Below are positions 8,719-19,684 of a DNA stretch of 41,341 nucleotides, piece after piece. The stretch lies in the IMG/VR virus record IMGVR_UViG_2718217863_000002. The stretch is one strand, 5' to 3'. Each line of letters starts with the position of its first letter. The stretch's first letter is position 1. Made by a program: the position numbers and the translations under genes. Origin of the DNA: a virus (taxonomy: Duplodnaviria > Heunggongvirae > Uroviricota > Caudoviricetes). The notes beneath the pieces were generated by a model. It worked only from the letters and a program-made list of their open reading frames with translations, was not told where the DNA came from and made no database searches.

Positions 8719-11058
8719 CTAGCCCACCAGTTTCTGTAGGGCAGTAAGCCGATCGGTTATCAGTGAGGAAATACGCACAGGCCCCGCGTCCGCATTGAGG
8801 TGGATGCGGGACGGATTTGTATCCCCCTCGGTTAATAAAAAACTAGTGCTATTGAATTTTGTCCAGCCACAGTCAGCGTTAAGGTCTATTAGGGGGAATC
8901 CATATCGCAACGCCACGGCGCGTATGGCCGCTGCATAGTCAGAAACCCGCCCATAGCCATTTGTTTCACCGTCAACCCATGCCGCTGAACGTGGAGAATC
9001 ATAGTCCCCATTGAACGGCGTGGCCCACAGGATAGGTTTTGTTGGGGCCCGCGCCCGCAGTTTCTGAGCGATGATGTTCAGCGCGCCGTAAACGGTTGTA
9101 TTCACTGAGTCGGTGATACTTCCAATCGGAATATTTTGCGCCCAGTCGTTTGTTGCCCACGGACCGCAAATCCACGCCGCCGCCGATGTATCCAGAGCAT
9201 TGATTCGCACATCGTCGCACATGCTGATTTGCGTTGAGGAGCTATCCGGTTTGGCTATTTTCGAACCACCGACCCCGTGATTCAGAAAAGTGCAGCCCAG
9301 TTCTGCCGCGACAAGAGGTTGCCATTTGTTATAAGCAACGTTGCTGTCACCCATCACATCGATGACTTTTCCAGACCACGGACTGACCGTGCTACCACCG
9401 GGAACGACTACATATTTTTTGGCAATAATGGGGACGGCTATACGGGTGGTGATCCCGATTTTGGCGGTGCCGGAAGGAGGTGTTAGCTCGTAATCGGTGT
9501 AGTCCACCGATTCTGTAGTACCGTTCCCTTCGGTGCCGATAACCGTCCCGGCACTGTTCATATACACCGCGAGCGAAACTCCACTGCCGTTAACCCTCGC
9601 TGTGACTTTCCAGCGGTCTCCTGCTGTGTAATTAAAAATTGCACAGTCAAATGCAGCATTTGCCACCACACTGCCATCAGCACGGTTTATATATGCTCCT
9701 GAGGTAATCGTGACGTCGTGTTTAATAAAATCATAAACAAGAGAGTCCTCTATTGTTTGTACCCTGACATCCAGAGAATCGATCGATGCCAGTACTTTGG
9801 CCGTCTCAACGACAGCAAGTTTTTTAACAGCAATTTCCGCAGAATTACGACCCGTTATACCGATCTGTGTTGTCCCGGCAGGAACGTTAAGACGATAATT
9901 AGTATACTGCTGCGGGGTTGCCGTTCCCCGCCCTTCAACACCCAATACCATCCCGGCGCTGTTCATGTACACGGCCAGAGCAGTCGCCGATCCTGTCACA
10001 AGGGCTGTCACCAGCCAGCCATCCCCGTCGGAATGCGGAATGATTGCGCAGTTCAGCGCAGAGTTATCAGTGATGGCCCCTGTAGTTGGGTTGATAAATT
10101 TCCCGACTTGCCAGGCAGCTGCATAAGCATAACCAACAGAGATAGCTCCCTGGAGCGCATCGACGCGTGATGTTAACCCCGAAATACCGGATGATATGAC
10201 GGCTGACAGATAAGTTTTATCCGGCGTGGCGCGAACAAAATCAGGCTGAATAGCCCCCAACGCAGCAGCATAAGCACCGACCTTAAATATCCCTGCCGTA
10301 GTATTTTCAACCCGGATCCTGACGTAGGATGCGCCGGATGGAATGACATCTGTGATAACCGGCGTATTTATACCTGCGGCCAGAGCAAGCTGTGATTTAG
10401 ACGAAATAACAGCGCCAGCGGTGGACATCCAGAAAATATGGAACATAGCACCGGCATCCTGGAACCACGCCAGCACGGAAAAGGTTAACTTATCACCAAC
10501 CCTTACAGGCAGGCGGGCAAGGTCATAATATTTATCTGCAGACCATACGCCGGAATACTGTGCCACTGGAGTCGGTAACGAAATATTGGCATCAGTAGTG
10601 CTGAAGGTGATCACTGCTCCGCGATACCAGTCCCACGCACCGAATTTAGGATCATTTGCTGAATATTCATTCAGAGCATCAAACAGAATGTTCGCCCCGC
10701 GTAGCGAAGAATAAGATGGCATTTTCCGCCCGGTAGGCTGCAGCGTACCGGCGTTATTGATCACTTCTACAGCTAACGCGTTGTCATCCGGGCTACGGTA
10801 ATACGTGGTCGACCCCACCGGAATATTCGCGATATCCGCCTGCGCCGCTGCCAGCGTCTGGTATTGCTTACTGAGCGGGATCAGGTTCTGCCTGACCTCA
10901 TCGTTTTTCGCCATCATCTGGCGCCAGGTATCGAGTGGTTCACCGCCGCGGTCGTCAACCGTTCCGGCCGGACCGTTAACCAGCTCGTCAGCGCGCTTAA
11001 CGTTGTCCATGAATATTTCCGGCGTCGTCGTGCCCAGTGGCGGGTTAAGTTCGGCCAT
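8719..11058 (-). CDS. tail fibre / receptor-binding protein, variant A (in expression position after J)
   Basis: 779 aa; shared N-terminus MAELNPPLGTTTPEIF; C-terminal region with GDSN, GGS and ND motifs suggesting an SGNH-type hydrolase. Confidence 0.75.
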   Translation of the reverse strand: MAELNPPLGTTTPEIFMDNVKRADELVNGPAGTVDDRGGEPLDTWRQMMAKNDEVRQNLIPLSKQYQTLAAAQADIANIPVGSTTYYRSPDDNALAVEVINNAGTLQPTGRKMPSYSSLRGANILFDALNEYSANDPKFGAWDWYRGAVITFSTTDANISLPTPVAQYSGVWSADKYYDLARLPVRVGDKLTFSVLAWFQDAGAMFHIFWMSTAGAVISSKSQLALAAGINTPVITDVIPSGASYVRIRVENTTAGIFKVGAYAAALGAIQPDFVRATPDKTYLSAVISSGISGLTSRVDALQGAISVGYAYAAAWQVGKFINPTTGAITDNSALNCAIIPHSDGDGWLVTALVTGSATALAVYMNSAGMVLGVEGRGTATPQQYTNYRLNVPAGTTQIGITGRNSAEIAVKKLAVVETAKVLASIDSLDVRVQTIEDSLVYDFIKHDVTITSGAYINRADGSVVANAAFDCAIFNYTAGDRWKVTARVNGSGVSLAVYMNSAGTVIGTEGNGTTESVDYTDYELTPPSGTAKIGITTRIAVPIIAKKYVVVPGGSTVSPWSGKVIDVMGDSNVAYNKWQPLVAAELGCTFLNHGVGGSKIAKPDSSSTQISMCDDVRINALDTSAAAWICGPWATNDWAQNIPIGSITDSVNTTVYGALNIIAQKLRARAPTKPILWATPFNGDYDSPRSAAWVDGETNGYGRVSDYAAAIRAVALRYGFPLIDLNADCGWTKFNSTSFLLTEGDTNPSRIHLNADAGPVRISSLITDRLTALQKLVG

Positions 11059-15073: not shown

Positions 15074-15539
15074 GATTCGGCCACTCCTTATTCAGGGCGA
15101 TATCAAGCAACGAACTTCCGACTATCCATTCCGGGTAATGCCCCCATCCAGACGGCGGCAATGGGCGCTCCCAGAGTTCTACTGGCGCGGTATATCTCCA
15201 GTAAAGTCCGCCTTCTGGCGTGGGGCCTTTATAAATATCCGTGAAACGACACACGTAATTTTTCAGCCCTACAGGCGTTAATAACGGTATGTTGAACCAC
15301 GCCGCCCCATCTGATAACTCATCCCGAAACCACGCCTCAAAAGCCTGCGCCTGGGCATCAGAAAAAATCCAGGCCAGATCTGTTTGGGTTGGTGTCGAGG
15401 TGTAGGCACGCCGCTGCCGTGCCCGGCCAGTTACCATCTGAGTCCGTTTCAGAGGAGATACAGGAGTTAAACCAAAACTCTCTTTAAGCGGACCAGGCAG
15501 GTAAGCGGAGGGGTAATAAAGCGTTGTGGTGATAGCCAT
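15060..15539 (-). CDS. minor/distal tail protein
   Basis: 159 aa, immediately downstream of the tape measure gene. Confidence 0.5.
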   Translation of the reverse strand: MAITTTLYYPSAYLPGPLKESFGLTPVSPLKRTQMVTGRARQRRAYTSTPTQTDLAWIFSDAQAQAFEAWFRDELSDGAAWFNIPLLTPVGLKNYVCRFTDIYKGPTPEGGLYWRYTAPVELWERPLPPSGWGHYPEWIVGSSLLDIALNKEWPNHDAD

Positions 15540-17974
15540 CAGCTAATTTTCCTCCCCGAGGTAGTTTTCCCCATCAAGGCCTTATGCAAATCACCCTGAC
15601 CGCTTGCGACTGAATTAACCGCCTTCCGGTATCCCCTTTCTGCCCCCTCATCTGCAGCTTTACGGACCAGCGCCAACGTTGCATCGGAAGGGTTACCATT
15701 GATGGGGATATTGATTGTGGGCGAATAAATCGCGCCGCCACCTGTTGACTGGTTTGCAACTCGATCCAGAGTGGCATCCAGTTTTGCGCTGGTTTTAGCT
15801 GTCGTAACGCGCTCACCTTTCTGCAGGAGCCAGGTTCCTGTTTCGGGCACAGAGTCGATACCGTCGTGAGCCTGTCCATGAAGCGCCGATCCGATAGCAG
15901 TCATGAACACGCCAGCAGCAGCTGCCGCAGCTATTGCTTGGGTTGACGCCACCACGGGACCTACATAGGGAACACCAATCCAGGCAGTGAAGGCACTCAA
16001 CGCTGCCATTGCTACCTGAGCAGCCGCATATTGCAGTAATGCAGCCCCAACAGATTGAATGAATGTCGCCGCAAAGTCCTGAGCGTTTAATTTACCGGTT
16101 TCCGCCCAGTTAATTACCATATCAGTTAAACTACTAAACGTTTGTGTACCTACTTGCTGCATATTTGCATATAGGTTTGAATATGCAGCAGCTTGATCTG
16201 ATATTCCAGAAACGAAACCTGCGACACCATCGTTTTGTAACTCTTCTAACTTCTTATAGTGTTCCTCTTGAATTCTTAGCCTTTCATTCAGCGAGTTTTG
16301 AAGCGCTTCTTTCTTTTTATCGTATAGACTTTTTTCAATATCTCCAGACTGAAATTGATTTAAAAGCTCTTCCTGTCGAGAAGCAAAATCTTGCTGAATA
16401 TCATTATTATCCTGCATGCGTGAACGTTCACGACTACCAGAATAACGGCCAACTATTTGGTTTTCAAACCCTTGGCGGACTAATTTATTCTGTCTTTCGA
16501 GATCTGAAACATATTCAGCTACTTTCGCATTTTCCTGATTAAGCCGTAACTCTTCCTTCTTGGAATCAAGGATTTTAGCCGCAGTTCGAAGTTGTTCCTT
16601 CTGCCCTTCAGATAATTTTTTCAGGTTTCCGCTGGTTATATCAAAATTAATCTTCTCCAGCTCGGTTACTTCTGCAGTTTTTTTACCGGTTGTTTCAATG
16701 AGGGCGGCCTGCTTCTGTAAATCAAGAAGCCTACTTTTGAAAGCGTTGTCAGTCGGATTGCTTTTTGGTTTTATTTTGGGCTGATTCTGGTTAGACTCCC
16801 CTTTTCCCAACGAAAAATCATTATCCTTAGCCGTATCAATGCCAAGATCAGAAAGAAGAGATGTGAGTCCTTTCGCTCCTCTATCTACCTGCTCCGGGGT
16901 CATTCTTGACTTTATCGCGCGAAGAAATTGAAGACGTTTAGTTAAAAAGTCTAATTCGTCTTTTTGTTCCTTACTTTGATTCCCTCGTTTATTAAGGAAT
17001 TCAATGCGCTGTGAAATATCACTTTCATCAGCAGCATTATAATTACCTGATACAGCACCTATACGAGAGCGGGTATAAGTAGCAATGGCCCCCAAGCCAC
17101 CAGCAATACGCCCCACAACCCCGGCAAGGCTTATGGCTTCACCAACCAAGTCTGATAGCCCCTGAAGAACAGCAGGATCGGTGAAGACGTCACGAATGTC
17201 ATCAAGCCCATCCTGCAATGGCGTAAGGTCAACCTTAGCCAGCCCCGAAGCCATTTCCATTTTAAGACCGCGGGCGCTAGTCTCTATATCCTGAAAGAAC
17301 TGATTAACCTTAACAAGGTTATCAATATCTTCTTGCGGTGGTGCGACACCAAAATCTTTTGATAGCTGGATAAACTGTTTCAGCTTCTCGTTGTTGTTGT
17401 CGAACAACGGCAGCATTTTTGACAGGTCATTACCCAGACTTTCGAGAATATTAGTTTTCCCGGCCTGAGTGGGTATTTTCTGTAATGCTTCACTGATTGC
17501 CATCAGCTGCTTATCTGGGGATTGCTGAGCCAGCTTCTGAGCTGAAAGCCCCAAAGTATCCAGCGCCTGAGCAGCCTCACCTGATTTATTCAGGACCGCA
17601 TCGCCGACCTTATCATTAATGTCTTTGAAAATATCGGCTATGTTGTCACCGGTTAAACCGGCTTGTTCAGCAGCATATTGCCAGGATAACAAATCCTGGG
17701 TGGACATTTTAAGAGATTTTGCCCAGCGATCAACTTCTGTAACCTGCTGTGCAGTATTTTTAACAATGGCTAGCCCAGCAGCGCCAATACCAACAGCTGC
17801 GGTAGCCGCTGCAGCCCCCACAGCAATGATTGAAGAACTTACCTCTTTAGCGTCTTTTTTTACCTGGTCGCGCCACTTCTGAGAAGATCTTTCGGCTTTA
17901 TCCATGCCCTGAACAAATCCACCTACTTTAGCGATCAGGTCGATTGTTAACGTACCGAGGGACTTGCCAGACAT
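15539..17974 (-). CDS. tail tape measure protein
   Basis: 811 aa; Ala/Gly-rich hydrophobic N-terminal segment, long coiled-coil-like middle, C-terminal hydrophobic block. Confidence 0.85.
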   Translation of the reverse strand: MSGKSLGTLTIDLIAKVGGFVQGMDKAERSSQKWRDQVKKDAKEVSSSIIAVGAAAATAAVGIGAAGLAIVKNTAQQVTEVDRWAKSLKMSTQDLLSWQYAAEQAGLTGDNIADIFKDINDKVGDAVLNKSGEAAQALDTLGLSAQKLAQQSPDKQLMAISEALQKIPTQAGKTNILESLGNDLSKMLPLFDNNNEKLKQFIQLSKDFGVAPPQEDIDNLVKVNQFFQDIETSARGLKMEMASGLAKVDLTPLQDGLDDIRDVFTDPAVLQGLSDLVGEAISLAGVVGRIAGGLGAIATYTRSRIGAVSGNYNAADESDISQRIEFLNKRGNQSKEQKDELDFLTKRLQFLRAIKSRMTPEQVDRGAKGLTSLLSDLGIDTAKDNDFSLGKGESNQNQPKIKPKSNPTDNAFKSRLLDLQKQAALIETTGKKTAEVTELEKINFDITSGNLKKLSEGQKEQLRTAAKILDSKKEELRLNQENAKVAEYVSDLERQNKLVRQGFENQIVGRYSGSRERSRMQDNNDIQQDFASRQEELLNQFQSGDIEKSLYDKKKEALQNSLNERLRIQEEHYKKLEELQNDGVAGFVSGISDQAAAYSNLYANMQQVGTQTFSSLTDMVINWAETGKLNAQDFAATFIQSVGAALLQYAAAQVAMAALSAFTAWIGVPYVGPVVASTQAIAAAAAAGVFMTAIGSALHGQAHDGIDSVPETGTWLLQKGERVTTAKTSAKLDATLDRVANQSTGGGAIYSPTINIPINGNPSDATLALVRKAADEGAERGYRKAVNSVASGQGDLHKALMGKTTSGRKIS

Positions 17975-17992: not shown

Positions 17993-18020
17993 AAAAAAAC
18001 CCCGCCGAAGCGAGGTTTTG
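17993..18020 (-). terminator. rho-independent terminator after the lipoprotein gene
   Basis: ACCCCGC-cgaa-GCGAGGT hairpin with T-run on the minus strand, between the lipoprotein stop and the tape measure start. Confidence 0.45.
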
Positions 18021-18043: not shown

Positions 18044-18436
18044 TTATTTAACTTTTCCCGTATAGCCCGCATTCACCTGAGCATCAGCGGAGTCTATTTT
18101 CCCATGGGAGTAAAAAATAGTATGTGCTTCAGCACCTGTATATCCACCATAGGAGTTTTTAGCATTAATGGTTATCGGAATAAGCCATCCATATCGCATA
18201 GCCCCACCTGATTCAGCTAAAATGCCATCCTTAAACCATGCTTTCTCTGGTGTACCAAAAGTATAATGAGCAGAATATGGGTCTTTTAACATCCTTCCCC
18301 ACCAATCCTTTATCTGCTGCTGATAGTTATCCGGTAACACCCCATAATCAGCCGAGTGCAACTGAACTTGGCTAGGTGGATTTGCGGCGCACGCAGTTAA
18401 CAATAATGCAAATAACATAATCGCTATTTTCTTCAT
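18044..18436 (-). CDS. lipoprotein (insert between tail chaperone and tape measure genes)
   Basis: Signal peptide MKKIAIMLFALLLTAC with lipobox LLTAC; 130 aa; lower GC than neighbours; own terminator. Confidence 0.6.
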   Translation of the reverse strand: MKKIAIMLFALLLTACAANPPSQVQLHSADYGVLPDNYQQQIKDWWGRMLKDPYSAHYTFGTPEKAWFKDGILAESGGAMRYGWLIPITINAKNSYGGYTGAEAHTIFYSHGKIDSADAQVNAGYTGKVK

Positions 18437-18499
18437 ATCCCTATCCCATTGGTTATTGTTGTACTGATGATATTGATACCTACAGCGATTTAAAAGTTA

Positions 18500-18814
18500 T
18501 CAATGCCAACTTTTCATAGCTTCTTCAAGAGATAATGGCGCTTCGTTGATGTGCGGTGCAAAGTCACTAACCTTGAACGGAGGCGTGTTCTTTGCCTTAT
18601 TGATGTTAGCCAGGACAGAAGCCACCAGCGAAGCCCCCCACTCGGTACGCATCATAACGTTAAGCTGACCATACTTATTACGGTACTTTACCCACACCTG
18701 AAACTCACGAAGGCTCATTCGCTCCTGAGCCTCCGCTATGGTCCGCCCACCGATGCCGTTCATGACTAACTCACACCAGAACTCGTCTTCTCCTGTGAGT
18801 TCGTAGTCTTTCCC
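18500..18814 (-). CDS. tail assembly chaperone GT extension (-1 frame)
   Basis: ORF 18500-18763 lies in the -1 frame relative to G; the -1 frame is open from the slippery site through its ATG. Confidence 0.55.
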   Translation of the reverse strand, partial: GKDYELTGEDEFWCELVMNGIGGRTIAEAQERMSLREFQVWVKYRNKYGQLNVMMRTEWGASLVASVLANINKAKNTPPFKVSDFAPHINEAPLSLEEAMKSWH

Positions 18815-19149
18815 AGATCGTTGACTTCCTGGATGACGGCCAGCAAAGCAATAACGATCGGCCCATCGAGCGCGCCACGATCTGGGGTAGCAGTTCCAAG
18901 AATGTCAGCCGCGGTAAACACTGGGGCGCCGTCCTGATCGCAAATATGCGCCGCAATGCGCTCAGCAATCGGGTCCGATTTCCCGTTATACGCCAGCAGT
19001 TCAGCTTTAGTGGTGTGGTAGCCCATCGGGCGCACATAGACGGTTGCGATATGCTCTTTCCTGTCACGGCCTTTCCACTTAATTTCTTTTTTCACGGGAC
19101 GCCCGGTAAAGGCACCGGTTTCTTTTAACGTATCGAGAGTAAGTTGCAT
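18766..19149 (-). CDS. tail assembly chaperone (lambda G-like)
   Basis: 127 aa, between major tail and tape measure genes; carries the slippery heptamer near its 3' end. Confidence 0.6.
   Translation of the reverse strand: MQLTLDTLKETGAFTGRPVKKEIKWKGRDRKEHIATVYVRPMGYHTTKAELLAYNGKSDPIAERIAAHICDQDGAPVFTAADILGTATPDRGALDGPIVIALLAVIQEVNDLGKTTNSQEKTSSGVS
18808..18814 (-). other. programmed -1 frameshift slippery heptamer G_GGA_AAG
   Basis: Minus-strand GGGAAAG with GGA and AAG in the zero frame of G (frame checked from coordinates). Confidence 0.55.
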
Positions 19150-19160
19150 TTCAGCTCCTG

Positions 19161-19185
19161 AATTGAAAAGCCCGGATAACCGGGC
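19161..19185 (-). terminator. terminator/attenuator after the major tail gene
   Basis: GCCCGG-ttat-CCGGGC hairpin then TTTTCAATT on the minus strand. Confidence 0.45.
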
Positions 19186-19192
19186 ATATTAA

Positions 19193-19684
19193 TTACGCTG
19201 CGGCCTTCGGCACCCATACGGAAGAGCCAGACCGCTGGATCGTGGCGGAGGTCGTCACAACAGCGTTACCCTGAAAATCAAACGGGAAGTCGGAAACGTA
19301 ACCCTGGAAAATGAACCAGGTGCGATCCGATGGCAGCACCAGGCCATCAACAGCATCCTCAGCGCCAGGAGCGGCGGCTGTCGGGATACTGGTTCCATCT
19401 GACCAGCCAACCGCAAAAGTTAACGGCGTCTGATCATTCGCTTCAGCGAGACCATGCAACATAATGTGGCTGGCGTTCGTCGGATCAGCGTTAAGCCCGA
19501 CGGTTGCGGCCGCAGGCGTTTTAAGCCCCTTTTTGTAGGTTCTTGAATCCCGCTCACTCAGACAGGTATCTTCAATCTGATCGGCAGGGTTGCCGCCGGG
19601 GTTGAAACTGGTGATGCATTCAACCTCGCTGACCACGCCAGACTTGAGCACAAAAAATTGCGTGCCTTGCGTTAATACAGACAT
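19193..19684 (-). CDS. major tail protein
   Basis: ATG at 19684 with GGAGA RBS ([12 protein letters not shown]...); 163 aa; track ORF starts at an upstream GTG. Confidence 0.7.

Follow-up and report, generated by a model that had tools for sequence, protein, structure and literature searches.

The window (by which we mean the whole stretch of 41,341 nt of DNA that was analysed) carries on its minus strand two consecutive open reading frames in a cluster of tail genes, and the question raised by this locus is whether the second one is a gene in its own right, as it appears in public records, or the downstream part of a fusion protein synthesised by a programmed -1 frameshift. We consider it very probable that the two ORFs are the G and T members of an HK022/D3-type siphophage chaperone pair, in an E. 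coli prophage next to icd, and that the fusion, GT, is made by a -1 slip on G_GGA_AAG. Several E. coli chromosomes contain prophages with 100% identity to the window, integrated beside a partial icd copy. This prophage has an HK97-type head and an HK022-type tail, and it also carries genes for a umuD/umuC-like polymerase V, a DNA adenine methylase, a ParB, a DUF4747 protein and an SGNH hydrolase tail protein. A copy of ISKpn26 is located just upstream of the major capsid gene in strain 5CRE51. The features considered below are collected in Table 1.

Table 1. Features of the G/T locus, with their positions in the window
Feature	Position	Strand	Basis or remark
G, tail assembly chaperone ORF	18766..19149	minus	zero frame, 127 aa
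Slippery heptamer G_GGA_AAG	18808..18814	minus	register and conservation in relatives
T segment, -1 frame, 102 codons and stop	18500..18808	minus	Pfam PF06223, PHROG 337
Annotated T start ATG	18761..18763	minus	start of RefSeq 'tail assembly protein T'
Predicted local hairpin	18768..18801	minus	-13.6 kcal/mol; probably incidental
Weak Shine-Dalgarno-like AGGAAGT	18824..18830	minus	9 nt 5′ of the heptamer
Tail tube (major tail) gene, directly upstream of G	19193..19684	minus	PF16460 Phage_TTP_11, E 9e-65
Tape measure gene, downstream of T	15539..17974	minus	PHROG 2854, E 5e-290; Pfam Tape_meas_lam_C

The first ORF (G) consists of 127 codons and its product has a mass of 13.7 kDa. The heptamer GGGAAAG begins at index 335 of this ORF (335 mod 3 = 2), hence in the X_XXY_YYZ register, and the zero-frame codons at this point are CTG GGA AAG (L112, G113 and K114), 15 codons before the G stop (TAG, 18768-18766); the C-terminal end of G in the zero frame reads ...VNDLGKTTNSQEKTSSGVS*. 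The -1 frame is free of stop codons from 90 nt 5′ of the heptamer to the TGA at 18502-18500, and the annotated ORF 18763-18500 is in frame with it. A -1 slip at the heptamer, with the T segment opened by re-reading G18808, would hence give a GT protein of 216 aa and 24.1 kDa, with the junction ...VNDLGK/DYELTGEDEFWCELVMNGIGGR... The initial annotation had located the heptamer at these positions and in this register near the 3′ end of G, and had described the -1 frame as open through the second ORF; when we recomputed positions and frames, both statements were correct.

The family memberships of the two ORFs are those of a tail chaperone pair. G matches Pfam PF16459 (Phage_TAC_13) with 105.7 bits against a gathering threshold of 28.8 (E 1.7e-30), it is also in PHROG 1749, and its domain is structurally similar to the tail assembly chaperone fold (HK97 TAC, PDB 2OB9). 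The T ORF, which is in PHROG 337, matches PF06223 (Phage_tail_T) with 31.8 bits, a small margin over the cut-off of 25.9, and the GT fusion scores 29.4 bits on the same model (cut-off 25.9). Among the NCBIfam models none matched G, T or GT, and a sequence search of the PDB with GT gave no match. The gene order (tail tube, G, T, tape measure) points in the same direction, with a tail terminator gene among the neighbours, a tail tube CDS of 492 nt that RefSeq names 'phage tail tube protein', and a tape measure protein of 811 aa.

This order is not strictly canonical, since a moron-like insert sits between T and the tape measure gene. The insert (18044-18436, minus strand) encodes a 130-aa lipoprotein with the signal MKKIAIMLFALLLTAC, belonging to PHROG families 35631 and 2320 (unknown function) and matching no Pfam family; on its two sides, at 18467-18494 and 17996-18019 (both minus strand), are a promoter-like site and a terminator-like hairpin (AAAACCTCGCTTCGGCGGGGTTTT and then a run of T). 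Related phages have a different gene at this position, and nucleotide similarity to them ends where T ends. On the other side of the pair, the 43-nt gap between the tube stop and the G start holds a GC-rich terminator-like hairpin (19170-19185, minus strand; GCCCGGTTATCCGGGC followed by TTTTC), by which chaperone expression could be lowered relative to the tube protein.

The heptamer by itself is not enriched in the window, in which we counted 7 copies of GGGAAAG on both strands against 5.3 ± 2.1 expected from shuffles. Since the bare heptamer occurs at chance rate, the case for a frameshift site rests on its context (register and position) and on its conservation. As regards the context, we scanned all the window ORFs of at least 100 aa and found 38 canonical heptamers in register, of which only the G/T site has a long -1 frame (102 codons, 88 of them past the zero-frame stop), the next best values being 22 and 17 codons. 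Among the tail genes, just one further in-register heptamer of the coding strand has a -1 frame reaching past the zero-frame stop. It is a TTTTTTA at 8842 (minus strand), where the SGNH hydrolase tail gene (ORF 11058-8719) has its 3′ end; its -1 frame extends for 61 codons, of which 22 lie past the zero-frame stop, and this heptamer is probably there by chance.

As regards conservation, we considered 80 close relatives (viral contigs) and 62 diverse loci, the latter with one genome per species and drawn from Enterobacterales, Pseudomonas, Marinobacter, Halopseudomonas, Thermomonas, Pelagibacterium and Aidingimonas; the most divergent G among them is 45% identical. GGGAAAG was found in register at the equivalent codon, and followed by a -1 ORF of about 100 codons, in 141 of 144 loci; the remaining three had GGGAAAA, GGGGAAG and a locus cut by the contig end, respectively. 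Gly113 and Lys114 are invariant residues. Precisely, in the diverse set the codon for Gly113 was GGA in 61 of 62 loci, whereas the other invariant glycine columns had GGA in merely 2-11 of 56-62; the codon for Lys114 was AAG in 61 of 62, and the third base of codon 112 was G in 62 of 62, with L, M, T, A, P or Q as the residue. The diverse loci were retrieved with two patterns, one of which included the Gly-Lys residues and was therefore biased towards the site; all the 28 loci that did not match this pattern, and that were found by the other one, carry the heptamer. Taken together, these codon counts indicate that the heptamer is kept at the nucleotide level well beyond what the protein would require.

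The two heptamer variants, the only ones in the diverse set, come from Candidatus Pantoea communis (L094) and from a Thermomonas MAG (L133). The first has the degenerate GGGGAAG, on which the A-site tRNA-Lys would mispair after the slip, and the second has GGGAAAA; the T frame is open in both. We also considered proteins in which G and T appear in a single frame as possible evidence for GT and did not use them. In fact, P0001 and P0022, which happen to read into the T frame, change frame midway and look like ORFs produced by assembly indels, and P0015 (158 aa) is an apparent deletion variant in which G continues in frame into the final ~40 residues of T.

We then looked at which frame is under constraint past the site. 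Across the relatives the zero-frame tail past the heptamer is of low complexity and has anything from 3 to 48 codons, whereas the -1 extension is steady at 98-108 codons, and conservation of its peptide begins directly with the codon that follows the heptamer (D-[YDE]-E-L-[TS]-x-x-D-E-x-W-[CH]-E-L...). Over the 12 codons past the site the mean pairwise identity reached 66% in the -1 frame, while the zero frame had 43% and the remaining one 47%, and column entropy peaked at the third positions of the -1 frame (1.12, against 0.67 and 0.54 at the other positions). The pattern of substitutions hence indicates purifying selection on T in the -1 frame, starting immediately after the heptamer. Moreover, in many relatives the -1 frame is closed 1-4 codons 5′ of the heptamer, and this fixes the place of the shift at the site.

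The most direct competitor of a frameshift is translation of T alone from the ATG at 18763, either independently or by termination-reinitiation, which would release a free 87-aa protein and leave the heptamer without a role. This ATG is indeed present 2 nt past the TAG of G, it is preceded by a weak GGTG (anti-Shine-Dalgarno pairing of -5.3 kcal/mol), and an 87-aa 'phage tail assembly protein T' is what RefSeq and the database entries listed contain. Nevertheless, its column holds an ATG in just 14 of 64 non-redundant relatives and a codon other than ATG, GTG or TTG in 49 of 64, and 32 of 64 have none of these three codons in the -1 frame between the upstream stop and 32 codons past the heptamer, so that in them T could be reached only via a shift at or beside the heptamer. 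The 15 residues upstream of the window ATG, including the peptide DYELTGEDEFWCELV, are moreover conserved family-wide in the -1 frame, the Shine-Dalgarno match is poor, and the nucleotide conservation of the heptamer exceeds the need of the protein. We consider separate translation of T very unlikely as the explanation of the locus, and the ATG at 18763 is most likely an internal Met codon of GT; some free T could possibly arise here by reinitiation at this codon, unlike in the half of the relatives lacking it.

It might also be argued that the heptamer arises by chance where a Leu-Gly-Lys motif is conserved and that the T ORF is here a non-functional remnant, a reading to which the chance rate of the bare heptamer in the window and the invariance of Gly113 and Lys114 would lend themselves. 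The codon counts make it untenable, because the synonymous codons for these residues go almost unused and the preceding base is G even where residue 112 is M, T, A, P or Q; together with the purifying selection on T in the -1 frame, this leaves the chance reading hardly credible. The probability that RNA polymerase, by slipping on the run of three A or three G, generates the fusion in place of the ribosome is smaller still and close to negligible. No specific point speaks for the polymerase, the -1 product being the same by either route, and the homopolymer runs are just 3 nt long, whereas runs of 9 A or T are given as an example for bacterial transcriptional slippage (PMC5009743); what is conserved is, furthermore, the full heptamer in its codon register, which is relevant only to the ribosome. 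A ribosomal -1 slip at the heptamer is thus the reading that we retain, with the T segment expressed, as far as the sequences indicate, only as the C-terminal half of GT.

A downstream stimulatory structure had been suggested as something to look for, and a modest hairpin does exist in the window, starting 6 nt 3′ of the heptamer (z -2.15; Table 1), although it is not conserved. RNAalifold on 64 relatives gave 0 consensus pairs for the downstream structure; when the window structure was imposed on the relatives, 55% of the cells were paired and the covariation was no better than with a slide of +1; and the stability of the hairpin, ranked within each relative's own G-T genes, had a median of 0.31. 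In one close relative (L012) the identical peptide is encoded by other codons and the hairpin is lost. The pairing in the window comes partly from two Glu-Leu codon pairs, GAGCTC, which are self-complementary. For the lack of a consensus, the 55% pairing, the median rank and the loss in L012 we rejected the hairpin as a conserved element, and in the window it is probably incidental.

On the 5′ side, the AGGAAGT of the window has an anti-Shine-Dalgarno pairing of -4.9 kcal/mol (rank 0.30). At the same distance of 9 nt from the heptamer, a GGAGGT ranks in the top 5% of the anti-Shine-Dalgarno pairing of the G-T genes in 32 of 64 relatives, and the GGAGGT of L083-L147 resembles the upstream stimulator of dnaX. 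The codon for Glu108 is GAG in 41 and GAA in 15 relatives; as this signal overlaps the conserved Glu-Val codons, it is to be read as suggestive only. Stimulation of the dnaX type, in which a 3′ stem-loop is conserved and an internal Shine-Dalgarno lies on the 5′ side, was hence not found at this site, where there is no consensus structure and the window Shine-Dalgarno is weak. No conserved stimulatory element was found from which the efficiency of the slip could be predicted. We also considered that the family might tune its G:GT ratio by a dnaX-like upstream Shine-Dalgarno (GGAGGT, in about half of the members), and that the lineage of the window might have weakened it to GGAAGT and gained the ATG 2 nt past the G stop, with free T as a third product obtained by termination-reinitiation; we regard this scenario as unlikely.

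The closest studied relative, as judged from the sequence comparisons, is the gp13/gp14 pair of phage HK022 (AF069308). By tblastn of the fusion against phage records, which matched HK022, D3 and others, it has 62% identity across the whole of GT, in two frames; it has the same pair of Pfam families (PF16459 and PF06223), shares the neighbours of G and T, and carries the heptamer at the equivalent codon between nearly identical flanks (CAGGAAGTnAACGATCT GGGAAAG ACT). The HK022 record describes gp14 as a two-piece join that is 'presumed to be expressed as the downstream part of a translational frameshift product'. The two loci differ in that the zero-frame tail of G past the site has 48 codons in HK022 against 13 in the window, T of HK022 is without a start codon, its downstream hairpin is stronger (-22.4 kcal/mol), and no moron separates T from the tape measure gene. 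Pseudomonas phage D3 has a similar pair, orf17/orf18, with 56% identity over both frames and the same heptamer and register, and its RefSeq record gives two separate genes, as for the window.

Phage lambda (J02459) likewise has GGGAAAG towards the 3′ end of its G and in the register found here, as had been claimed for it, and its G/GT has V (tail tube) on one side and H (tape measure) on the other; its T domain is in PF06223, like the T of the window. The G proteins differ in family, since lambda G is in PF06894 (Phage_TAC_2, 204 bits), a family that neither the window G nor GT matched at E ≤ 0.01, whereas the window G is in PF16459. Pairwise BLAST found no similarity between the window T and lambda T, and lambda GT has 279 aa against the 216 of the window. 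As the Pfam family in common with lambda concerns the T half alone, the pair is more precisely called 'HK022-type'. The term 'lambda-type' used by the initial annotation thus holds for the mechanism, because heptamer and register are shared, and fails for the G family.

The site can also be compared with that of E. coli dnaX, which consists of A_AAA_AAG with an upstream Shine-Dalgarno and a downstream hairpin. At the window site, as at dnaX, a tandem slippage would end on AAG, read by a single tRNA-Lys (PMC5009743), and half of the relatives of the window share with dnaX the upstream feature, as the GGAGGT described above. Unlike dnaX, the window has a weak Shine-Dalgarno-like sequence (-4.9 kcal/mol) and no conserved 3′ hairpin, and by analogy with lambda its expected efficiency would be a few percent and not the 50% of dnaX.

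More in general, G/GT of the long-tailed phages forms a class with a conserved -1 frameshift (Xu, Hendrix & Duda 2004, summarised in PMC5009743). G_GGA_AAG is highly shift-prone in E. coli, whose sole tRNA-Lys pairs better with AAA than with AAG, and in lambda a low-level -1 shift gives G and GT at about 30:1, the tape measure being bound by G and by the G part of GT, and the major tail protein by the T part (PMC5009743). In the prophage of the window, most of the ribosomes would therefore, if the same scheme holds, read G to its stop and release the 127-aa chaperone, while a minority would slip back by 1 nt on G_GGA_AAG and read the -1 frame to 18500 to give the 216-aa GT. In this slip, tRNA-Gly would leave GGA and pair with GGG, and the one tRNA-Lys of E. 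coli would leave AAG and pair with AAA. If the roles are as in lambda, the tape measure would be coated by G and by the G half of GT, and the T half would recruit the tail tube protein, in which case the slip efficiency would set a fixed G:GT ratio. That this ratio matters is indicated by phage TP901-1, in which a hard-wired fusion gave non-infectious particles (PMC4493119). The prophage may be defective or silent.

The proposal of a GT fusion product is hence supported by the gene order, by the conservation of the site, by the selection acting on the -1 frame, by the missing T start in half of the relatives and by the join in the HK022 record. The frameshift is an ordinary and strongly conserved one, of a known class, and is absent from the public annotation of this prophage. 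RefSeq splits the pair into two separate CDSs, 'phage tail assembly chaperone family protein, TAC' and 'phage tail assembly protein T', the latter of 87 aa from the ATG at 18763; among the 120 database homologues of T listed, none is a fusion and most have 87 aa; those with a name are called 'phage tail assembly protein T', 'phage tail protein' or the like, and others have none.

Beyond annotation and the benchmark mentioned below, the current understanding of these systems is not challenged. The main value of the result lies in the annotation, since the 216-aa GT is omitted in RefSeq and in the database entries listed for the prophage and its Klebsiella and E. coli relatives, and the 'tail assembly protein T' of 87 aa listed in its place is probably never present in that form. 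A corrected annotation would be useful for proteomics searches and for phage or tailocin engineering, and the family-wide codon statistics provide a clean benchmark for frameshift predictors.
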